Shown in pieces: positions 86-10,581 of a DNA stretch of 10,833 bases. Made by a program: the position numbers and the translations under genes. The notes under the pieces were generated by a model. That model was not told the origin of the DNA, made no database searches, and saw only the letters and a program-made list of their open reading frames with translations. How positions within the stretch are numbered: the stretch's first letter is position 1; the number at the start of each line of letters is the position of its first letter. The DNA comes from a bacterium. GTDB taxonomy: Bacteria > BMS3Abin14. The DNA lies in contig CP070698.1 of the NCBI GenBank assembly GCA_020349685.1, forward strand, positions 1,021,934 through 1,032,766. Reading direction: 5' to 3'.

Positions 86-688
86 TTAGGCCTCTTCGGC
101 ATCCCACTTCGGATGGTTCTTCTTGGCCCATTCCCTGGTTACCGTACCCTTGGTCATGGCGCGCCACGTGCCCGGCACGCCGATGGTGCCCAGATAGGCA
201 TGGATGGCAATGAAGCCCATGAAAAGGATGAATCCGAGGTTGTGGAGAAAATACATCCACTGCTGAAGCCCCCTGCCGAGCTGGAAGGGGAACCACATGG
301 CGAGCCCCGTCAGGGCCATGAGGACCGCCAGGATGATGGCGACCCAACCTGCCAGCTTCTGTCCGGCGTTGAACTTGCCTGCCGGCGGGGCTTTGGCGCT
401 CGGATCCATGTACTCCTTGATCACGGCTCCTAGGGAATCTTCTCCTGGAGCAGAGATATCCTTGAACCACTGCAGGAAAATGATCACGGTTGCCACTATG
501 AACACGATCCCTGCCCAGTGGTGGATGACCCTGGAGTTGTCCACCCCTCCGAACAGTCCGGTCAGGCCGAAGAAGGACTTGGCGTAAAGACCCAGCCCCG
601 TGATGACGAGCACGATGAAGGCGAGCATGTTGATCCAGTGGAACATCCGTTCACCCTGGGTGGTCCTTTTTACGAGATGATGTGACAT
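86..688 (-). CDS. fdnI: Formate dehydrogenase-N gamma subunit (di-heme cytochrome b556 membrane anchor), 200 aa
   Basis: Four hydrophobic helices with His heme ligands (ERMFHW, RVIHHWAG, YFLHN, IAIHAY). Family motifs GKFNAGQK and GTWRAMTKGTVTREWAKKNHPKW are present. The ATG overlaps the fdnH stop (TGATG) and has an SD AAGGAGGTGA upstream. Confidence 0.95.
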   Translation of the reverse strand: MSHHLVKRTTQGERMFHWINMLAFIVLVITGLGLYAKSFFGLTGLFGGVDNSRVIHHWAGIVFIVATVIIFLQWFKDISAPGEDSLGAVIKEYMDPSAKAPPAGKFNAGQKLAGWVAIILAVLMALTGLAMWFPFQLGRGLQQWMYFLHNLGFILFMGFIAIHAYLGTIGVPGTWRAMTKGTVTREWAKKNHPKWDAEEA

Positions 689-1512
689 CAGTACTCACCT
701 CCTTCCCCGGGTGAGGGTGAGGGTGACGGCGCAGCCGCCCCGCCCTCTTCATCGGGCTCTTTGGGACCGATGGTTATATAGTGGGCGATAAGACCCACAA
801 CCCCGGCCACGAAGGCGATAACGCCCACGGGCTTCATGATGGTGCGCCACAGGAAGGTGGGGGTCGGGATGGCGGGTTTGGCCGGCAGGCCGTACTGTGT
901 GGCGCTGTCCTCGAGCAGGAACACGACGTTCGTGCGCAGGGGTCCGCCGTCGTAGACCGCAAGGCCCTTCTCCTTGGCAGCGGCCGTGATGCCGCCCAAT
1001 TTTCCCTTATCGGTGAAATAGAGGGCATCCGTGGGGCAGGTTTTGGTGCAGGCGGGCTCCATGCCCATACCCTGGCGATCGAAGCAGAGAGTGCACTTGA
1101 ACGCCTTGTCCTCGCCGAACCCCTCTGCGTTGGACCGGTCATAGCGGGGAACGTCGAAGGGGCATCCGAACACGCAGTACTTGCAGCCGGTGCACAGTTG
1201 CTGGTTGATCACCACGGAGCCGCTGGCCTCGCGGGTGATGGCCCCCGGAACGGGACATGCTTTCATGCAGCCCGCATCGGCGCAGTGCATGCACCTGTGC
1301 TGACCGAAGAACCATCTGATCTCCCCATCCCTGTCCACCTCGTTGAACCGGATCTTGGTGTAGGTGTTGTAGGAGAGATCCGGGGGGTTCTCGTAGCTGC
1401 CCTTGCACTCGGTCGGAACCGCCGAAAGACTGTTCCACTGCTTGCAGGCTGTCTGGCAGCCGCGGCAGGCAGTGCATCTGGTAGTATCGATAACGATCAT
1501 TTTTTCAGCCAC
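688..1512 (-). CDS. fdnH: Formate dehydrogenase-N beta (4x[4Fe-4S]) subunit with C-terminal TM anchor, 274 aa
   Basis: Four Cys clusters: CTACRGCQTAC, CMHCADAGCMKACP, CTGCKYCVFGCP and CTLC...PACTKTCP. Also GSYENPPDLS and a C-terminal TM helix (VGVIAFVAGVVGLIAHYI). GTG start preceded by GAAAGGGGGTGA. Located between fdnG and fdnI. Confidence 0.95.
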   Translation of the reverse strand: MAEKMIVIDTTRCTACRGCQTACKQWNSLSAVPTECKGSYENPPDLSYNTYTKIRFNEVDRDGEIRWFFGQHRCMHCADAGCMKACPVPGAITREASGSVVINQQLCTGCKYCVFGCPFDVPRYDRSNAEGFGEDKAFKCTLCFDRQGMGMEPACTKTCPTDALYFTDKGKLGGITAAAKEKGLAVYDGGPLRTNVVFLLEDSATQYGLPAKPAIPTPTFLWRTIMKPVGVIAFVAGVVGLIAHYITIGPKEPDEEGGAAAPSPSPSPGEGGEY

Positions 1513-1529: not shown

Positions 1530-4500
1530 CTATTTCTTATCGACGTTGACCATGAAGGCCTTCGTCTCTGGGATCATGGTATTGGCGTCCCCGATGCTGG
1601 GTGTCAGAAGGTTGCTCGAATCGCCATAGGTCGGGTTGGTGTAAGCCTTCCCGTTGGCCATAACGTCGTTCTCCTTCGTCGTCGCCCAGCCGAACGCCCA
1701 GGGCAGTCCTACCTGGTGGACCGTGGCGCCGGCGACCTGGAACGGCTTGAACCGTTTGGTCACGATGGCGATGGCGTCCACCTTGTTGCGGACCGAGGAC
1801 ACGACGACCTTGTCGCCGTTCCGGATGCCCCTTTCATCAGCAAGCTCTACGCTTATCTCAACGAAGTTGGCCGGCATCATCTCGGCCTGCCACGGCAGCC
1901 ACCGGGTCAGAACACCTGTCTGCCAGTGCTCCGACACCCTGTAGGTGGTGGCGACGATGGGGTACCTGTCGTCACAGTTGAGGAACTGGTCCATCTTCCC
2001 CGTGAAGATCTTCGAAACGGGGTTGATCCTCTGGGGGTTCATGAGGTTGCGCTCGATGGGACACTCCAGAGGCTCATAGTGTTCGGGGAAGGGACCCTCG
2101 GAACGCCCTGGCCCGAAGATGTGGGAGACCCCGTGGGGCTTCATGATGTAGGCGAGCTTCGTAGCGTCGTTCCAGGTTCCGTCGGGCTTGCGCAGGGGAG
2201 GCCATCCTCCGTCCGGCACATCGCCGACCCACTTGGAGCCGTTCCAGTAGACGACCGGCTTGTGGGGAGCCCACGGTTTGCCGTATTCGTCCACCGAAGC
2301 CCTGTTGTAGATGATCCGCCGGTTGACCGGCCAGCACCAGGTCCAGCCGTTGTACAGACCGATGCCGGTGGGATCGGACTTGCCGCGGCGGGCCATGCTG
2401 TTGCCCGAATCGGTGTAGGACTGGCAGTACAGCCAGTTACCGGAGGAGGTGGACCCGTCGTCCTGAAGGAAGGCGAAGGAGGGGACGAGATCCCCTGCCT
2501 TGAAGTCCCTGGCGCCGACCTTCTTGTCCTCGAGGAAGTAGCCGTTGATCTCCTTGGCGATGAGGTGGGTGTCCATGTGACTGACCTTGCCATCCGGACC
2601 CTTGGGACCGTAATTCCAGTCGAGGTTCACAATGGGCTCGGGGAAAACCCCGTTCTGCTCGGAATACAGCTTCCGCACCCGCCACTGGAGTTCGTTGATG
2701 ATGTCCGCATCCGTGGGCGCGGGGGGCTTGACCGCCGCGTAGCGCCACTGTGCCCAGCGGCCCGAGTTGGTAATGGAGCCTTCCTTCTCGAAGGACATGG
2801 CGCAGGGGAGCAGGAACACCTCTGTCTTGACCTGGCTCGGATCGACGCCCGGGCCGCGCCAGAAGGATCCGGTTTCGTTGTCGAACAGGTTGACGTTCAC
2901 CATCCAGTCCAGCGTAGCCAGGGCCGCCCTGACCTTGCCCGCGTTGGAACCGGAGCAGGCCGGGTTCTGTCCCCAGGCGAAAAAGCCCGTGAACTTGCCG
3001 TTGAGCATCTCGTCAAAGAGCACGAGCCACGAAGCGTTCTGCCCTTCGTCGAGTTTCGGCAGCCATGAATACTGGGTTTCCAGGTCGGCGCTCTTGCCGA
3101 AGTGTGCCCGCAGAAGACTGGCGCTGTACTTGGGATAGTTGCTCCACCAGTTGGCCGAATAAGGCTCTTTGGTCTTGGGTGTCTTCGCATCGTTGTACTT
3201 CGCGAAGGTCGACAGTGACGCGCTGGGCGTTCCCAGGTATCCCGGAAGGATGTGGAACAGGAGGCAGTGGTCCGTGGATCCCTGCACGTTGGATTCGCCG
3301 CGCAGTGCGTTCACACCGCCGCCCGCCATCCCGATGTTGCCCAGCAGGAGCTGGATAATGGCCATGGTCCTGATGTTCTGGGTGCCGACAGTGTGCTGGG
3401 TCCACCCCATAGCGTACATGATCGTGCCGGTGCGGTTGGGTTTGCCCGTGGAAGCGTAGGTCTTGTAGACCTCGAGGAGCTTGTCCTTGGGCGTCCCGCA
3501 GATGGCCGAAACCTTGTCCAGGGTGTACCTTGAGAAGTGCTTTTTCAGGAGCTGCAGGACGCACATGGGGTCCTTCATCTCCGGGTCCTTCTTGACAACG
3601 CCGTTGGCATCGGTCTGGAAGGACCAGGTGCTCTTGTCATAGCTCCTCTTCTTCGGGTCGTAACCCGAGAACAAGCCGTCCAGCTCACCCGGCATCTTGA
3701 AGTCCTTGTTAACGATAAACGGACCGTTGGTGTACAGCCGGACGTAATCCTTGTGGTACAGCTCGTTGTCGAGGATGTACTTGATCATTCCGCCCAACCA
3801 GGCGATGTCGGTGCCGGACCTCATGGGAGCGTAAATGTCGGCCTTGGAGGAAGTTCTCGTGAAACGCGGGTCCAGGCTCAGAAGCTTGGCCCCATTCTCC
3901 CTGGCCTTCATGACCCATCGGAAACTGATGGGGTGATTCTCGGCAGCGTTGCTGCCAGAGACGATGATGACATCAGAGTTCCTGATGTCGATCCAGTGGT
4001 TGGTCATCGCCCCTCTTCCAAACGACTCTGCCAGAGCCGCTACGGTTGCGCTGTGTCATATGCGCGCCTGATGTTCGATATACACCAGGCCGAGGGCGCG
4101 AAGCCACTTCTGGAGGATGTAGCATTCCTCGTTGTCGAGGGCCGCGCTGCCAACATGGGCGATGGCGTCGTTCCGGTTGACCACCTGGCCATTGTCGTTG
4201 ACCTTGGTGAAACCGGCATCGCGGCTCTTCTTGATCTTCTTGGCTATCTCGTTGTAGACCCAATCCCAGGACTTCTCCTGCCACTCGCTGCTGCGGGGGG
4301 CACGGTAGAGGGGTTTGGTGATGCGGTACTCGCTCTCCGAGACCTGTCTTAAAGCCTGCGCCTTTGAGCAAAGGGAGCCCTCGTTGATCGGGTGATCAGG
4401 GTCTCCCTCCATGTTCACGACCCTTCCGCCGTGGGCACTGACAATGAGGCCGCAGCCCACGGCGCAGTAGGGACAGATGGTCGTTGACTCCTTGGCATAC

Positions 4501-4625
4501 TTGATGGCGACGTTGCCCTCGCGGGCTCCCGCCATCGCTGTGCCTTTGAGTCCCAGGCCACCTAGCGCGGCGCCAGACACGGTCGCACCGGAGATCTTGA
4601 TAAAGTCTCTCCTGGTTACGTTCAT
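1530..4625 (-). CDS. fdnG: Selenocysteine-containing formate dehydrogenase-N alpha subunit (Mo/W-bis-PGD), ~1031 aa, Tat-exported; Sec at codon 4056-4058
   Basis: ORFs 4056..4637 and 1530..4007 are in the same frame. Reading through the TGA gives EHQARI-U-HSATVAALAESFGRGAMTNHW, the canonical FdnG active-site motif. Also present are the Tat motif TRRDFIK, the [4Fe-4S] motif CPYCAVGCG...GSLCSK, the catalytic Arg in NALRGESNVQG, and C-terminal PFPEHYEP and IPETKAFMVNV. ATG 4625 has GGAG 6 nt upstream; GTG 4637 is an alternative start. Confidence 0.96.
4018..4045 (-). promoter_or_regulatory. Bacterial SECIS element (Sec insertion sequence)
   Basis: Starts at nt +11 after the UGA: CCG-(U bulge)-AGCGGCUCU-GGC-AGAGUCGUU-UGG. 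This is a 12-bp stem (including G-U pairs) with a bulged U and a G-containing apical loop at +24..+26. Confidence 0.85.
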
Positions 4626-4748
4626 CCCTGTCTCCACCTTCCTTTCTTACGGGTTAAAGTCCAGATAGCTTACGACAATTGTGCGGATAAAAGGTCAAGT
4701 CACCTCCTTCCCGAACGGTTTCCTCCTTCCATACCGGTTCTTTTTCTG

Positions 4749-4790
4749 AAAAATGATAAAGGAAGCCATGCATACGCAATGGCTTCCTTT
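4749..4790 (-). terminator. Leader (attenuator) terminator, the putative riboswitch expression platform upstream of fdnG
   Basis: Perfect 12-bp inverted repeat AAAGGAAGCCAT (4758-4769)/ATGGCTTCCTTT (4779-4790). On the minus strand the GC-rich stem is followed by UUUAUCAUUUUU. It lies ~125 nt upstream of the fdnG start. Confidence 0.75.
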
Positions 4791-4874
4791 GCAAAAAGGG
4801 CAGGCACCGGAATTGCTCCCGGCACCCTATCGTCCCGCCCATCCTCAGGGGACGTCACGGGATCGGAAGACACT
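4778..4874 (-). ncRNA. Moco-family riboswitch candidate lacking P3 (tungsten-cofactor/Wco-type variant)
   Basis: The minus-strand RNA folds by eye as follows. P1 is AGUG-U-CUUCC/GGAAG-C-CAUU. P2 is UCCCGU...CGUCC-CCUGA-GGAUG...GCGGGA. P4 is GGGUGCCGGGA-GCAA-UUCCGGUGCCU with a GNRA loop. P5 is UGC-CCUUUUU-GCA, followed by AAGG. The 5' CUUCCGA and 3' GCCUGCCC..UUGCAAAGGAAG parallel the Moco motif hallmarks CUCCGA and GCCUCCC..UUGGAAAGG. It sits upstream of a Mo/W enzyme. Confidence 0.75.
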
Positions 4875-5002: not shown

Positions 5003-5031
5003 AGGTTATAATACGCTGTTCTATTTTTCAA
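5003..5031 (-). promoter_or_regulatory. Candidate sigma70 promoter for the riboswitch-fdnGHI transcript
   Basis: TTGAAA (5031-5026)-N17-TAACCT (5008-5003) in an AT-rich stretch. An overlapping TATAAC is at 15-nt spacing. Confidence 0.45.
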
Positions 5032-5088: not shown

Positions 5089-6012
5089 TTAAGCGTCCTC
5101 GGCCTCCTCTTCGGTGATCGTCCCTATCCAGACACCGCATATATTGGGCGCGCCCCTTGAGTATCCTTCCTCCTCGATGGCTCGGTCAAAGCCGGGCGTT
5201 TTGAGATCCTCCACCTCAGGGTGTGCGCTGCCGAGATCATCCCCCTCGATCCTCCATCCCTTGATGTAGGACTGGCACTGGCTGCAGACACTCGCTGACA
5301 AATTGCGGTAATCGGGATCCTCTGAATAAAGATATCCCGATTCCCTGGGGTTTTCGTGACCGCAGTAAGGGCAGGCGAGCCTTCGGTAGCGCCAGTGCGC
5401 TTCGCACCTGTGGCAGATGAGATGCCTTTTGCCCCCCTCACCCATCATGTAGGCCACGGCGGGCTCGCCACCGCATACGGGACAATGCCCTTTCTCCCAG
5501 CTGGAGGTGTCAACATCGGCGCACCGTACGGCCGCTTCCAGGAATGGGCGCTTCAGGGCATTGAATAGAACGAACATGACAACCTCAGGGTTAACTCCCT
5601 CGATGGACACCAGGTTCTTTCTGAGGGGCTCCTCCCCCTCCGTCAGATAAATGCGGGCAAGTCCCCTCAGCCTGGCCGTATCATCCTCCAGACCCGCCAT
5701 GTCACTGAGCAGGGCCGCGCTGTCCTCCGAATGGCGGCCCAGAACATGGATCACCTGCCCGACCATGACAGCCAATTCATCCTCATCCGGCACCATTTCT
5801 TCAGGGTCGATGAGGGTAAACCCCTCGGAAAGCCTCATCTGGGCTTCCTCCTCGGTCAGGGCCCTCCTGTTCTCTCCTCCCACAGAGCTCTTTTCGTTCA
5901 ATTCGAAAAGATCCCGGTAAAGACCCAGGACATCGTCCATACCCTCGACATCCAGCTTACCGGCAAGGAGGGCCTGACTGGCAGTTTCGCGTCTGGTGCT
6001 TTTTTCCGTCAT
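5089..6012 (-). CDS. fdhE: Formate dehydrogenase maturation protein FdhE, ~307 aa
   Basis: C-terminal Cys pairs WEKGHCPVCGG, RHLICHRCEAHW, RLACPYCG and CSQCQSYIK are typical of FdhE, and the gene is adjacent to fdn genes. The start was moved from 6045 to ATG 6012 because GGAGGT lies 6 nt upstream of it. Confidence 0.9.
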   Translation of the reverse strand: MTEKSTRRETASQALLAGKLDVEGMDDVLGLYRDLFELNEKSSVGGENRRALTEEEAQMRLSEGFTLIDPEEMVPDEDELAVMVGQVIHVLGRHSEDSAALLSDMAGLEDDTARLRGLARIYLTEGEEPLRKNLVSIEGVNPEVVMFVLFNALKRPFLEAAVRCADVDTSSWEKGHCPVCGGEPAVAYMMGEGGKRHLICHRCEAHWRYRRLACPYCGHENPRESGYLYSEDPDYRNLSASVCSQCQSYIKGWRIEGDDLGSAHPEVEDLKTPGFDRAIEEEGYSRGAPNICGVWIGTITEEEAEDA

Positions 6013-6052
6013 GGGGATACCTCCGGGGAAACAAATCATTATCATGACATCA

Positions 6053-6134
6053 GAATGAGGAATAGGGAAGGAGGGAGGAGGAATAATACGTTTCTCTTCG
6101 TCCTTCGTCCTTCCTCCTTCTTCCTTCGTCCTTC
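6053..6134. repeat. Inverted pair of heptamer tandem arrays (imperfect hairpin)
   Basis: Left arm GAATGAG GAATAGG GAAGGAG GGAGGAG GAATAAT (6053-6087). Right arm TCTCTTC GTCCTTC GTCCTTC CTCCTTC TTCCTTC GTCCTTC (6093-6134). CTCCTTC is the reverse complement of GAAGGAG. Confidence 0.8.
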
Positions 6135-6141
6135 AAATTAT

Positions 6142-6159
6142 GTCCAGGTCCAGGTCCAC
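6142..6159. repeat. Short hexamer tandem repeat
   Basis: GTCCAG GTCCAG GTCCAC, immediately after the stop codon of the 936-aa gene. Confidence 0.55.
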
Positions 6160-6162
6160 GAA

Positions 6163-8973
6163 CTATACCTTGGCTTTTTCGATCCTGCCCATAAAAACCT
6201 TCAACTCCATGCCTCCCGTGGAAAAATCAAAGACCGGGGGGGTCAGGGCGTTGGCGCCCGGCTCATCATCCCCGTAAAGGGTCATGGAAGCAACGTGATA
6301 GAGCGTCCCATCCCTTTCAAAGGTGCCGATCCTTCCCGTAACGAGGGCCGTGGCCTGGACACCTGCTTCATGATAGGGAGAAAGGACATTGATATTATCC
6401 CCGCTCCTGATTCCCAGGGAGAGGGCAAGTTTTTCCCCGATCTCCACCATTCGGCCTGTCCCCAGTTCCCTTGCCGCGGCCGGCCAGGCCGTAACGCCCC
6501 CGGTCCCCATGATATGGCCCGTCCTGTGCAGCATGATAATAACGGGATACTGGGAGAGGACCTCCTCCGGCCTTCTGGACAGATAGCCCCACTTGTCTGC
6601 ACCCTCCTTTCGAAGCTGCAGACCGGGATTGGATTGCCCTCCGGTCAGAAAATCGGGAAGGGGGCTGTGAAAGGGCTCGTGGTGCTCCGGAAAAGGGCTT
6701 CCTTTGTCTACAAGCCTCCAGAATTTGATGGGAAGCTGGGGCCTCAGCGGCAGGACCTCTGCCGCGGAATACCTCTTTTGGCTCTGCCCTTTCCACCGAA
6801 GATAAGCCCCTTTCTCATTTCCCGGCTCTCTTGCCCAGGAAAAGGGATCGGCGACACCCCAGGGCCAGAACCAGCCCCACCTGTCGTAGAGGCCCACTGC
6901 ATCGGGATCGACGGGATCTCTTCGTCCGGCATTCCATGTTTCGCTTTCCATCCAGCCCCGATAGAGCTGGTTTCCGCACCGATCATCCTTCTGCCAGGAT
7001 CTGTCTGCGGGTAATGGTGTCTCCTGTCCTCCGCTCCATCGCCACCCGTTGATCTCTGCGGCCACATTTTCCGGTGTCATGGCCAATGGCCAGTTCAGGT
7101 CGAGCACTGGTCCCTCGAGAACACCGCCCTCTGCTTCGTACTTTGCGCGGATGGAGTTGCCCAGACTGGAGAGGAATTCGAGGAGTCGCGGCACCTCCCT
7201 GTCGTCATTCCCGACAGGGCTGACAGACCTTACCCTCCTGCCGTGATCTGTCATGGAACCGTTTTTCAGCGCCGGTGGTTCTGTCGGGATAAACAGGACC
7301 TCCGTTTTTATGGTTGATTCTCGGCCCGCAGGCCGCTTCCAGAAGCTGCAAAGGCGATTGGGAATGGAATCCATGACGACGAGCAGGTCCAATCTGTCAA
7401 GGACCTTGTGTATCGAGGAGCTGTCGGAAAGGCTGCTCAGGGGGTCGGTTCCCATGGCAATCAGAGCTCGTATCTGTTCATCACCGACACCCTGGATGAT
7501 GGTGCTGACAGACGGACTTTCGTCCTCCTCAAGGTGGGGGATATAATCCAGCGCCTCCTTTATCCTTGTCGAAGGATACCAGGCCTGCACCAGGGCATGG
7601 AACGCTTCCGGATTTTTCACGCCCTCGTTGTCTTTTCGGTACCGCGGTATCGGGATGTAACCCGGGAGGTAGGGGGCCATGAGCCCCATGTCACAGACGC
7701 CCTGCGCGTTGCCGGCTGCTGCGGGCAGAACAACGCCTCCGCCCTTCTTGTCGAGGTTTCCGAGAAGGGCCTGCGCCACCGCGGCCATCCTGACGGCCTC
7801 CGCGCCTGAAGGGCTGACCAACGCTCCGGAACCGAGAATGAATGTCGCCGAAAAATCAGGGCTGGCGGTCCTCGCCAGAACGGTACATGCCCGGCGCAGA
7901 AGATCGATATCCACCCCTGAAATACCTGTGATCTTCTCGAGGTCATACCGCTCGAAATGCTTCTTCATTCTCTGGAAGATCGAGTAGGGTTCCGAAAGAG
8001 TTTCATCGACGATCTCCCTGTTCTTGTATTTCCCCGAAGCGTGTTTCTCGTAAGCTCCCATGATCTCGCTCAACACGATGAAGGCCGCGTCCGAGTTGTC
8101 AACCAGCTCGGATTTTCTGATATCAGCATACTTGAGAACCCAGTTTACGAAGGCACCGAGGACGGCGTTGTCTGTTCCAGGACGCAGCTGCAGCCACAAG
8201 TCGTTCTTCTTTATGGTTTCCGATTTCCTCGGGTCGAGAACGATGACCGTGCCGCTTCGTTCGCGTACCCTGTCGAGGAAACGGCAGAGGGCTGGCGCCG
8301 TCTGACCCGGGTTGCATCCAACAAGGACGACAACGTCGCTATGGCCGACCTGAGTTGCAGGATGGGTCCCGCCCGGGATCCCCAGAGTGTCCAAAAGTCC
8401 TGAAACAGCCATACCGTGGCTGGATCGAACGGTTGTGTCCATGCCCAGAACGCCCAGCGCCCGGAACAGTTTGGAGGTTGTGTAAGCTTCTTCGTTGGTA
8501 AGATTTCCACCGGTTATGACGCCGAGGCTGTCGAAACGGTTGAAGATCTTTTCACCGCCGCCTGAAAAAATACCGAGATCCCTGTTCCTCAGGTCCTTAA
8601 TACGCCTGGCGACGAGGTGAACAGCTTTATCCCAGTCGATCTCTTCAAAGCTTTCAGCGCCGGGAGGACGGTACAGCGGCCTGGAGACCTCCGCGAGATC
8701 CAGTGACCCCGTGAGGGATGCCCCGCGAGGACAGAGCGACCCCCGGGCCACCGGGCAGTCTGGATCACCCTCGACGAGCCAATGACCGTGCTCCCGGGAC
8801 CGGTAGATCAGACCGCAGCCGAGACTGCAGAGGGGACAGCGCCCAGGGATCTCCCGGCCTGAGAGAAGGGCGCTTCGTTTAGACGCGCTCAGGGCGGGAA
8901 GCCTTGCGCCAGCCACCAGGCAGGCAAGGATCGTCCCGCCGGTTTTGAGGAAGGTGCGGCGTTTGAGTTTCAT
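6163..8973 (-). CDS. Divergent FdnG-like molybdopterin-oxidoreductase-family protein, 936 aa, with Tat signal and [4Fe-4S] motif but non-canonical active site (Ser for Sec/Cys, Ala for Arg)
   Basis: Collinear with FdnG along its length: KRRTFLK Tat motif, CPLCSLGCG...EGDPDCPVARGSLCPRG, RPLYRPP, NEEAY..KLFRALG, LRPGTDNAVLG, LLGNLDKKGGGV, PFPEHHEP, and GMELKVFMGRIEK. The frame is uninterrupted. Confidence 0.9.
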   Translation of the reverse strand: MKLKRRTFLKTGGTILACLVAGARLPALSASKRSALLSGREIPGRCPLCSLGCGLIYRSREHGHWLVEGDPDCPVARGSLCPRGASLTGSLDLAEVSRPLYRPPGAESFEEIDWDKAVHLVARRIKDLRNRDLGIFSGGGEKIFNRFDSLGVITGGNLTNEEAYTTSKLFRALGVLGMDTTVRSSHGMAVSGLLDTLGIPGGTHPATQVGHSDVVVLVGCNPGQTAPALCRFLDRVRERSGTVIVLDPRKSETIKKNDLWLQLRPGTDNAVLGAFVNWVLKYADIRKSELVDNSDAAFIVLSEIMGAYEKHASGKYKNREIVDETLSEPYSIFQRMKKHFERYDLEKITGISGVDIDLLRRACTVLARTASPDFSATFILGSGALVSPSGAEAVRMAAVAQALLGNLDKKGGGVVLPAAAGNAQGVCDMGLMAPYLPGYIPIPRYRKDNEGVKNPEAFHALVQAWYPSTRIKEALDYIPHLEEDESPSVSTIIQGVGDEQIRALIAMGTDPLSSLSDSSSIHKVLDRLDLLVVMDSIPNRLCSFWKRPAGRESTIKTEVLFIPTEPPALKNGSMTDHGRRVRSVSPVGNDDREVPRLLEFLSSLGNSIRAKYEAEGGVLEGPVLDLNWPLAMTPENVAAEINGWRWSGGQETPLPADRSWQKDDRCGNQLYRGWMESETWNAGRRDPVDPDAVGLYDRWGWFWPWGVADPFSWAREPGNEKGAYLRWKGQSQKRYSAAEVLPLRPQLPIKFWRLVDKGSPFPEHHEPFHSPLPDFLTGGQSNPGLQLRKEGADKWGYLSRRPEEVLSQYPVIIMLHRTGHIMGTGGVTAWPAAARELGTGRMVEIGEKLALSLGIRSGDNINVLSPYHEAGVQATALVTGRIGTFERDGTLYHVASMTLYGDDEPGANALTPPVFDFSTGGMELKVFMGRIEKAKV

Positions 8974-9161: not shown

Positions 9162-9866
9162 TCAGTCCTCCTCTTCCTTCCTCCCCTTCTTCCTTTCCTG
9201 GGATCTGGTCAGATGGTCGACGAGGACGCGTCCACCGGTCATGACATTGGTCTTGACGCTCTTTTCCACAAGGCTCTGATCACCGCTCCTGAAAGCTTCT
9301 ATGATCTGAGAATGCTGGTGTATGGCGTTCTCAAACTGCCCCGGCAAAGTCAGGGAGATGATCCCGAAGCGGTTGAAGTGGTCGTTCAGGTTGGAGATCA
9401 TCTGGATCAGGCGTTTGTTGCCGCAAAGCCTGACAAATCCCTCGTGGAACCTCGTATGGACCCTGTAGAACGATTCCAGGTCGTTCTTGTCGATAAGCTC
9501 CTTGAGTTCATCGTTGATCTTCTCGAGCCTGGCGATATCCTTTCCCTTCATGTTCCTCGCGGCCAACCTCGCCGCCAGGCCTTCCAGCGTGCTTTTTATC
9601 TCGTAAAGGTTTATAGCCTCATCGGTGTCGATGTCCGTTACGACAGCCCCTTTGCGCGGGATGATCTGGATGAATCCTTCATTTTCCAATTTGCGGAAAG
9701 CTTCCCTCAAAGGGGTACGGCTTATCCCCATGGATTCCGCCAGCTCCCCTTCAGGGATCTTCTCTCCTGGCTTGAACTTGCCCTTGATAATGGCTGTTTT
9801 TATGGATTCGGCGATATCTTCGGAAAGGAGTTTGGGCTCGTCGATCCTGATCTTGAAACTGCTCAT
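9162..9866 (-). CDS. GntR-family transcriptional regulator (wHTH + FCD domain), 234 aa
   Basis: wHTH motif IIKGKFKPGEKIPEGELAESMGISRTPLREAFRKLENEGFIQIIPRKGAVV. FCD features LYEIKSTLEGLAARLAA, RFHEGFVRLCGNKRL and HQHSQIIEAF. Confidence 0.95.
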   Translation of the reverse strand: MSSFKIRIDEPKLLSEDIAESIKTAIIKGKFKPGEKIPEGELAESMGISRTPLREAFRKLENEGFIQIIPRKGAVVTDIDTDEAINLYEIKSTLEGLAARLAARNMKGKDIARLEKINDELKELIDKNDLESFYRVHTRFHEGFVRLCGNKRLIQMISNLNDHFNRFGIISLTLPGQFENAIHQHSQIIEAFRSGDQSLVEKSVKTNVMTGGRVLVDHLTRSQERKKGRKEEED

Positions 9867-9906: not shown

Positions 9907-10581
9907 TTACAGGGCCGTTTGCTTCTTTACCTCCTGCTCAACCCTTACAGCCAACTCTTCACCGCTGAGCAGGGCGTGTTCCAGGACCACGGCCTCGGCA
10001 AGGCGCCCATCCTTTCTCGCCAGAGCCCTGATAATGGTCCTGTGCTGCCTGACGGAATCCATGAGCCTTCCCGGCACAGATAGCGCCTGGAGGCGGAACC
10101 TCATGAACCTCTGCACCATGTGCTCACGGAATTCCAGGAGCTTCTCATTACCACAATACGATATAAAAGTATTGTGAAACTCGTCGTTCTTCCAGAAAAA
10201 TGACTCCACATCGCCCTTTTCCGCCAGGACGGCCAGCTGTTCATTGATCTTCCTGAGCTTTTCGATACCCTTTTCGGTGATCTTTTCAGCCGCGATGCGC
10301 GCGGCGTAACCCTCAAGCAGACTTTTCAGTTCGTAAAAATCGTCGATCTCCTTCCTCGTGATCTTCGATACGACGGCTCCTCTCCTCGGAATGACCGTCA
10401 GGAACCCTTCACTCTCGAGCTGCCTGAAGGCTTCACGTATCGGGGTTCGACTGATCCCGAGCTTCTCTGCAAGCTCCGGCTCGGTGAGTTTCTGGCCCGG
10501 ATTCAGCTCACCTTTGATGATGGAATCCCTCAGGGAAGAAACGATCTGTTCGCGGAGTGTCTGATGTTTCTTTAATCTCAT
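9907..10581 (-). CDS. GntR-family transcriptional regulator (wHTH + FCD domain), 224 aa
   Basis: wHTH motif IIKGELNPGQKLTEPELAEKLGISRTPIREAFRQLESEGFLTVIPRRGAVV. FCD features NDEFHNTFISYCGNEKL, RQHRTIIRAL and LEH. Confidence 0.95.
   Translation of the reverse strand: MRLKKHQTLREQIVSSLRDSIIKGELNPGQKLTEPELAEKLGISRTPIREAFRQLESEGFLTVIPRRGAVVSKITRKEIDDFYELKSLLEGYAARIAAEKITEKGIEKLRKINEQLAVLAEKGDVESFFWKNDEFHNTFISYCGNEKLLEFREHMVQRFMRFRLQALSVPGRLMDSVRQHRTIIRALARKDGRLAEAVVLEHALLSGEELAVRVEQEVKKQTAL

Follow-up and report, generated by a model that had tools for sequence, protein, structure and literature searches.

A predicted transcriptional ON riboswitch of the molybdenum/tungsten-cofactor class in the leader of a formate dehydrogenase operon

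The fdnGHI locus and its leader aptamer

The stretch of DNA that we analyzed (10,833 nt of CP070698.1, assembly GCA_020349685.1, BMS3Abin14; hereafter the window) carries all of its relevant genes on the minus strand. Two GntR/FCD regulators (9907-10581 and 9162-9866) are followed by a gene for a molybdopterin oxidoreductase of 936 aa (6163-8973) and by an FdhE-like gene (5089-6045), and a gap of 460 nt separates the latter from an fdnGHI-type operon. The operon encodes a formate dehydrogenase-N-like catalytic subunit with a Tat (twin-arginine) signal (fdnG, 1530..4625), an fdnH-like 4Fe-4S subunit with the Form-deh_trans (FDH-N membrane) anchor (688..1512) and an fdnI-like cytochrome b subunit (86..688). 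The fdnG reading frame of 1036 codons begins at the ATG at 4625-4623 and contains an in-frame TGA at 4058-4056 (codon 194) that is read as selenocysteine; the orthologs retain this in-frame TGA, for example as I*HSAT in L024.

A candidate promoter (TTGAAA, 17-nt spacer, TAACCT) lies at 5003..5031 on the minus strand and would mark the start of the leader. The block at 5031-5003 (TTGAAA-17-TAnnnT) is conserved in three genomes of the same genus and partly in a fourth, and a consensus promoter scan proposed instead an overlapping site, TTTACC-18-TATTAT, at 5037-5008. The same scan found no promoter-like site between the hairpin described below and fdnG (4749-4626). With the 5031-5003 block as the promoter, the aptamer would be preceded by about 115 nt of leader; small conserved hairpins, such as CGGG...CCCG at 4917-4903, are found in this interval.

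About 120 nt upstream of the operon, which encodes a Tat-exported, selenocysteine-containing enzyme, lies an aptamer of the Moco/Tuco class (RF01055; 4768..4880, minus strand). The covariance model is matched over its full length (model positions 1-135) with 48.1 bits against a gathering score of 36 (E 3.4e-09); RF01055 is the sole Rfam RNA family matched in the window, and a search of the whole genome gives the same match. P1 is formed by a 5' strand, AGUGUCUUCC (4865..4874), and a 3' strand, GGAAGCCAUU (4778..4787), the latter in common with the 5' arm of a downstream hairpin. Folding and a check of the pairs bear out the P1 coordinates of the initial annotation, 4874-4865 with 4787-4778, giving nine pairs and one U-C mismatch (4870 x 4782), and P1 is present in the unconstrained folds of transcripts ending at 4778, 4775 and 4770.

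The helices of the aptamer are maintained among the 14 orthologous fdnG leaders that we collected, 92.9% of the cells being paired compared to 36-56% for controls in which the partners were slid. Compensatory changes on both sides occur at 10 aptamer pairs, in P2 and P4, a number reached by none of 500 shuffles. P1 and P5 are invariant within the fdnG family and so are the core nucleotides of the aptamer; of the P1 5' strand, only G4871 and CUUCC (4869-4865) are conserved across the orthologs, the Rfam scores of which range from 34 to 46 bits.

In the alignment to RF01055 the P3 positions of the window aptamer are deleted, P4 carries a GCAA tetraloop and P5 is of the G-C/C-G version. We know of no direct demonstration of ligand binding by a Moco/Tuco aptamer. 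According to the accessible part of PMC2408646, a direct binding test is impractical even for the E. coli Moco RNA; P3 is absent in 58 of 176 family members and is thus optional; and P3-less RNAs correlate with tungsten-cofactor metabolism, the absence of P3 being proposed as a mark of tungsten sensing. As P3 is missing and the genome of the window encodes three AOR-family genes, the ligand of the fdnG aptamer is probably the tungsten form of the pterin cofactor.

A hairpin sharing a strand with P1

In the hairpin, the 5' arm AAAGGAAGCCAU (4779..4790, minus strand), which includes the conserved AAA junction of the aptamer and falls in invariant columns, faces a 3' arm, AUGGCUUCCUUU (4758..4769, minus strand), that is anti-SD-like and nearly invariant in the 14 orthologs. 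All 12 pairs of this hairpin (4790-4779 x 4769-4758) are Watson-Crick, and beyond a bulged U two or three extra pairs lead up to a GUAU loop. The isolated hairpin folds with -20.4 kcal/mol (z = -5.08), a stability that none of 200 shuffles attains. P1 and the hairpin have nine nucleotides in common (4787-4779) and therefore cannot coexist; the mutual exclusion proposed initially, with the P1 3' strand placed within the 5' arm of the terminator, is thus borne out by the computed folds.

The stem is followed by a U-rich, interrupted tail, AUCAUUUUUCAG (4746..4757, minus strand), the expected zone of termination. Its first ten positions, 4757-4748, read AUCAUUUUUC, an interruption of the U-tract that had already been pointed out. 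The zone would lie about 120-125 nt before the fdnG ATG, in agreement with the spacing of about 125 nt given at the outset.

A consensus terminator scan of the window left the hairpin unflagged, likely because the perfect 12-bp stem leaves a loop of 9 nt and the scan allows a maximum of 8. The scan flagged instead the P4 stem of the aptamer with a U-run (4827-4793), a candidate that we rejected: this U-run lies within the P5 loop and varies among the orthologs.

In folds of the growing transcript, P1 is part of the minimum free energy structure of RNAs that end at 4775 or 4770 and has given way to the hairpin in those that reach 4765 or further. With the RNA extended to 4742, the energies are -57.4 kcal/mol with the hairpin and -42.9 kcal/mol with P1 enforced. 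Given this advantage of about 15 kcal/mol for the terminator, the ligand cannot win at equilibrium and the switch would have to be kinetic, beyond the earlier argument that the longer terminator simply wins.

Aptamer leaders across genomes

The GTDB phylum of the window consists of a single family, in which the motif was found in 14 of 15 other genomes, and the lineage with the fdnG version is known solely from metagenome-assembled genomes. Most genomes of the family have one long, high-scoring aptamer copy and one copy of 111-114 nt. The short copy, gathered from 14 genomes of 9 genera, precedes fdnG in every case, and all 14 leaders keep the P1-overlapping hairpin, with energies of -17 to -24 kcal/mol and 96.4% of its cells paired, compared to 35-61% when the partners are slid. 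The six core positions of the P1 3' strand all pair in the hairpin in 13 of the orthologs and five of the six do so in the remaining one (G014). The hairpin loop and the sequence downstream of the tail drift and the 3' arm is almost invariant. No compensatory changes were seen in the hairpin among the 14 orthologs, because its 5' arm is the invariant core of the aptamer.

As terminator-like we counted a compact hairpin of -7 kcal/mol or lower followed by at least 5 U in 8 nt. Twelve of the 14 fdnG leaders have this arrangement, the tail of the window being U-rich but interrupted. The two leaders that lack the U-run belong to other genomes of the window's genus and keep the hairpin with a weaker tail. 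U-richness after the stem is retained across the 9 genera in leaders that are otherwise G+C-rich. In one family member (L097), what is left of the aptamer before fdnG (580-700) is the 5' strand of P1 with a portion of P2, and the hairpin is gone as well, indicating that the switch was lost at least once.

We also scanned 80 loci of FdnG homologs, each with 700 nt upstream, for the aptamer. At the gathering score, the aptamer is absent from all 68 loci that belong neither to the family nor to one Rokubacteria MAG; the association with fdnG is therefore lineage-restricted, and that scan provides no independent replicate of the overlapping hairpin. The MAG carries a P3-less aptamer (L161, 370-481; 39.3 bits) about 200 nt before its fdnG homolog, the only match among 69 FdnG-homolog loci outside the window's family. 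A P1-overlapping hairpin is absent from this leader, which counts against the ON reading.

The moaA leaders of the same lineage are built differently. In the genome of the window (2.03 Mb, one contig) RF01055 has two matches, one before fdnG and the other before moaA. The moaA aptamer, likewise without P3 by inspection, has a separate terminator of canonical form downstream, with a GC-rich stem and U6, 13 nt beyond the point where the P1 3' strand starts. Among the MoaA leaders of the same genomes, seven, and one more that is cut by a contig end, have terminators 9-21 nt after P1 that do not overlap it, and one has an SD inside P1. By its geometry, the non-overlapping terminator is the predicted layout of an OFF switch.

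A survey re-centred on another phylum (55 genomes, 57 aptamer matches) revealed aptamers of 110-112 nt before genes of aldehyde:ferredoxin oxidoreductase (AOR; AFOR_N/AFOR_C). In 11 of 14 AOR leaders, a compact hairpin again uses the P1 3' strand as its 5' arm and runs directly into U5-8. P1 differs between the AOR loci (GGAGCC, GGGGCC, GAAGCC, GGAGUC), and both the P1 5' strand and the 3' arm of the hairpin track these changes. We scored this as triples of the P1 5' base, the P1 3' base and the hairpin 3' base across the 26 loci classed as ON-type, which include one low-scoring locus with an unreliable 5' anchor (L088). P1 positions 2, 4 and 5 co-vary on the three strands: position 2 is C-G-C in 20 loci and U-A-U in 3; position 4 is U-A-U in 14, C-G-C in 8 and U-G-C in 4; and position 5 is C-G-C/U in 13, G-C-G in 7 and A-U-A in 1. 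The three-way covariation comes only from the AOR group of the other phylum. Two alternative helices that both track one strand are the signature of a switch.

The 89 aptamers were classified by platform and by first downstream gene (Pfam on 27 representatives, the others by blastp to them). An overlapping hairpin with a U-run is found in 23 of them, and all 23 precede genes of cofactor-using enzymes, FdnG or AOR; these cases represent few lineages, and as related genomes are non-independent they are not 23 events. The arrangement accounts for 12 of the 14 FdnG leaders, the other two keeping the hairpin with a weak tail, and for 11 of the 14 AOR leaders, the other three having other layouts. 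It occurs in none of the 61 leaders of all other genes, biosynthesis and transport genes included; before solute-binding and transport genes an SD inside P1 is found in almost all. At L064, upstream of an unannotated gene, there is a partial overlap that is weak.

Several leaders of the survey are of separate interest. RF01055 aptamers precede genes of NAD-type aldehyde dehydrogenases (Pfam Aldedh) at six loci (L004, L035, L063, L065, L069 and L071), two with an SD inside P1 and three without an assignable platform; at L004 a hairpin with a U-run, 64 nt after P1, was dropped by the compactness filter. Set against the overlapping design at AOR genes of their phylum-mates, the Aldedh aptamers look like a cofactor-dependent swap of isozymes. 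Aptamers also precede the gene of a 163-aa 4Fe-4S protein (L040, L046, L048, L049, L066, L070 and L074), where a GGGAGG SD lies about 12 nt beyond P1 and is complementary to CCUCCC within the aptamer itself, an arrangement that may be a translational platform, either ON or OFF. Finally, two tandem RF01055 matches, 55 nt apart, lie before a radical-SAM gene (L067, G111:C1:371732-372051), the first aptamer of the tandem being followed by its own terminator.

Certain aptamer features recur among the 26 ON-type loci. In 25 of them the P4 tetraloop (window 4811-4822) is GCAA or GUAA, not GAAA, together with a short P2; the accessible part of PMC2408646 describes members with a GCAA loop as lacking the tetraloop receptor. 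P5 is of the variant GC...GC (CCUGCC...GCAAAG, with CCUGCU in 3) instead of CC...GG in all 26, and this variant is also frequent in the SD-in-P1 aptamers of the second phylum.

Alternative readings and a proposed kinetic ON switch

The alternative that survives best, an unlikely one in our judgment, is translational OFF control with the hairpin as an anti-sequestor. Without ligand the hairpin would tie up the GGCUUCCUUU arm and leave the ribosome-binding site free, and P1 formed with ligand would release the arm, which would pair with AAAGGAAGG at the ribosome-binding site of fdnG (4645-4637) and block it. The anti-SD-like 3' arm is indeed complementary to the conserved ribosome-binding region of fdnG (AAAGGAAGGUGGAG, 4632..4645, minus strand), a complementarity that is expected anyway because AAAGGA in the aptamer core resembles an SD. 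When P1 is enforced, full-leader folds pair the arm wholly or partly with this region in about 6 of the 14 orthologs, a pairing that would work against activation, whereas in the window the nearest and predicted partner of the arm is a mid-leader purine box, 4767-4758 pairing with 4717-4726, and the ribosome-binding site is left open. PMC2408646, in its accessible part, speculates that the cofactor might repress enzyme genes. A sequestor, however, would have no use for the U-rich run found directly after the stem in most of the fdnG and AOR leaders; the arm lies 105 to about 330 nt from the ribosome-binding site, with variable sequence in between; and the moaA leaders show that the lineage builds its OFF switches differently.

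The purine box is one of two in the middle of the leader, GGAAGGAGG (4730-4722) and GGGAAGGAGGUG (4712-4701), which together span 4701..4730 on the minus strand and are possible partners of the 3' arm. Nearly all fdnG leaders (L020-L033) have strong SD-like purine boxes (GGAGG) at a distance of 30-70 nt downstream of the hairpin, and no conserved start codon follows them among these leaders. An upstream ORF after the GGAGGUG box, a TTG-started frame of 14 codons in the window, was considered and rejected, as inspection showed its start codons to be unconserved in the orthologs. The boxes may instead serve as a sink for the released arm, so that the true ribosome-binding site stays accessible, as modeled by the fold of the window.

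A further alternative, which we regard as quite improbable, is that the hairpin competes with P1 without terminating transcription, and instead tunes the stability or the processing of the RNA or operates via Rho or some other factor; the regulation could then go in either direction. The interrupted U-tract, the weak tails of the two orthologs of the same genus and the failure of the consensus scan to call a terminator are in line with it; against it, U-richness after the stem has been kept across the genera in spite of the G+C-rich leaders, and the canonical hairpin and U6 of the moaA leader indicate that riboswitches of this lineage use intrinsic termination. The RNA libraries bear on both readings. 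A 246-nt metatranscriptome contig with 0 differences to the window spans 4557-4802 and thus crosses the hairpin into fdnG, which would suit a hairpin that does not terminate and is equally expected from read-through of an ON switch; a second contig covers 4773-4853. As the Logan metatranscriptome contigs show neither 3' ends nor strand and DNA carry-over is possible, they are compatible with the existence of read-through transcripts in nature, and the end of coverage at 4853 is no evidence of a transcription start. We consider it very improbable that the aptamer is a relic in decay, with a hairpin that attenuates constitutively or arose by chance, for the modest Rfam scores (48.1 in the window, 34-46 in the orthologs) and the remnant in L097 are outweighed by the ten compensated pairs of P2 and P4, the invariant core nucleotides and the retention of the element in 14 genomes.

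Based on these comparisons we propose that the fdnG leader acts as a riboswitch of the molybdenum/tungsten-cofactor class that turns transcription ON under kinetic control, as in the pbuE type, a reading that the sequences make likely. What the sequences show is the aptamer, the two helices that exclude each other, the conservation of these elements and their occurrence before enzyme genes; from this we infer termination at the hairpin, the identity of the ligand and the direction in which the cell would respond. As stabilization of P1 removes the 5' arm of the terminator, only one direction of transcriptional control is possible, and the ON interpretation put forward in the initial annotation gains support from the 14 fdnG leaders, the layouts at moaA, the covariation at AOR genes and the association among the 89 aptamers.

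According to the proposed mechanism, the P1-containing fold of the aptamer would be the most stable one as the P1 3' strand (4787-4778) emerges from RNA polymerase. The 3' arm of the hairpin (4769-4758) would emerge about 10-20 nt to a few tens of nt later and could then invade P1 and the AAA junction to form the much more stable hairpin of 12-15 bp, followed by the U-rich tail. Without ligand the invasion would succeed and transcription would stop at about 4750, some 120 nt before fdnG; with the pterin cofactor bound in time, P1 and the junction would be locked, the hairpin could not nucleate and polymerase would read through into fdnGHI. Production of the Sec/Fe-S/haem enzyme would thereby be limited to conditions in which the cell has its cofactor, and the moaA aptamer of the same genome would shut biosynthesis off via its separate terminator. 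The genes for the 936-aa molybdopterin oxidoreductase and the FdhE-like protein directly upstream (5089-8973) have no aptamer of their own, and if no terminator follows fdhE, the switch would additionally gate read-through from that upstream operon.

Moco/Tuco riboswitches have so far been treated as feedback OFF switches. Our data raise the possibility, which we put forward tentatively as one nearly as apt to hold as to fail, that the class contains a structurally distinct and widespread ON subclass for apoenzyme genes (FdnG, AOR) alongside the OFF versions, which in this reading would serve genes of biosynthesis, uptake and cofactor-independent aldehyde dehydrogenases. The marks that we propose for such a subclass, with the same reserve, are the absence of P3, a short P2 that lacks the tetraloop receptor, a P4 loop of the GYAA type, the G-C variant of P5 and the use of P1 as an arm of the terminator. 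If the ON subclass is real, a single metabolite signal would swap isozymes and match the apoenzyme to the supply of cofactor, one aptamer class would work in both directions within one genome, and the annotation of many AOR and FDH leaders in the supplement of PMC2408646, as far as it is accessible, would be altered. It would also be the first cis-acting coenzyme riboswitch that turns on its own holoenzyme, and would account for the way in which anaerobes are spared the cost of Sec/Fe-S/haem apoenzymes when cofactor is lacking. The positive, gain-of-signal read-out of an ON switch could in addition ease the screening of pterin intermediates for the long-standing question of the ligand.

The closest parallel in logic is the adenine riboswitch of pbuE (ydhL) in Bacillus subtilis, in which the P1 3' strand is part of the 5' arm of the terminator, the terminator is more stable than the P1 state and the ligand must bind during transcription for read-through to occur. 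The fdnG leader shares this platform, both in the overlap of P1 with the predicted terminator and in the greater stability of the latter; pbuE differs in having an aptamer of the purine class and another ligand, and in controlling an efflux pump rather than an apoenzyme. The biological purpose is shared with the AdoCbl riboswitches of EutX/Rli55 and AspocR, in which the utilization of ethanolamine or propanediol is controlled via trans-acting or antisense RNAs, the length of which is set by the riboswitch. There, as proposed for fdnG, the presence of the cofactor is required for expression of the enzymes that depend on it, yet these systems have no cis ON switch in the leader of the enzyme itself, such as we propose here.

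The E. coli moaA Moco riboswitch belongs to the same family (RF01055) and has the same conserved junctions, P1, P2, P4 and P5, and it too resides in the 5' leader of a gene linked to the pterin cofactor (PMC2408646, accessible part). It possesses P3, which the fdnG RNA with its GCAA tetraloop lacks, and its ribosome-binding site is inside P1, so that translation of the biosynthesis genes is repressed (PMC2408646, same part); the initial description of this RNA as an OFF switch agrees with that account. In the fdnG RNA, unlike in E. coli, it is an arm of the predicted terminator that lies inside P1, before the gene of a cofactor-using enzyme, a geometry that implies an ON switch.

The 'Tuco' riboswitches of Eubacterium limosum resemble the fdnG RNA in being P3-less members of RF01055 in a user of tungsten enzymes, some with terminator hairpins after them, and are described in the accessible part of PMC11725836 as sequestor/antisequestor designs or as having downstream terminators. 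There focA and fetABC1 rise under tungsten limitation, which is OFF behavior, and these data, the only wet-lab kind that we found for P3-less members, count against the ON reading; that part of the paper describes neither a P1-overlapping terminator nor ON behavior for E. limosum. More generally, we found no statement of an ON-type Moco/Tuco switch or of a P1-overlapping terminator in the open full-text literature as far as it is accessible, PMC2408646 and PMC11725836 included, nor is an ON-type member stated in the accessible parts of PMC9971707, PMC1950547, PMC9495176, PMC3766115, PMC3543383, PMC12318220, PMC13390414 and the TaRTLEt preprint. The 2008 supplement (PMC2408646, in its accessible part) already lists Moco RNAs upstream of one operon that is Formate-Dh-Na-like and of many COG2414 (AOR) genes. 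Thus the riboswitch class and its association with AOR and FDH-N-like genes were known, whereas the predicted ON expression platform, apparently tied to a compact subtype of the aptamer, is new as far as this literature goes.
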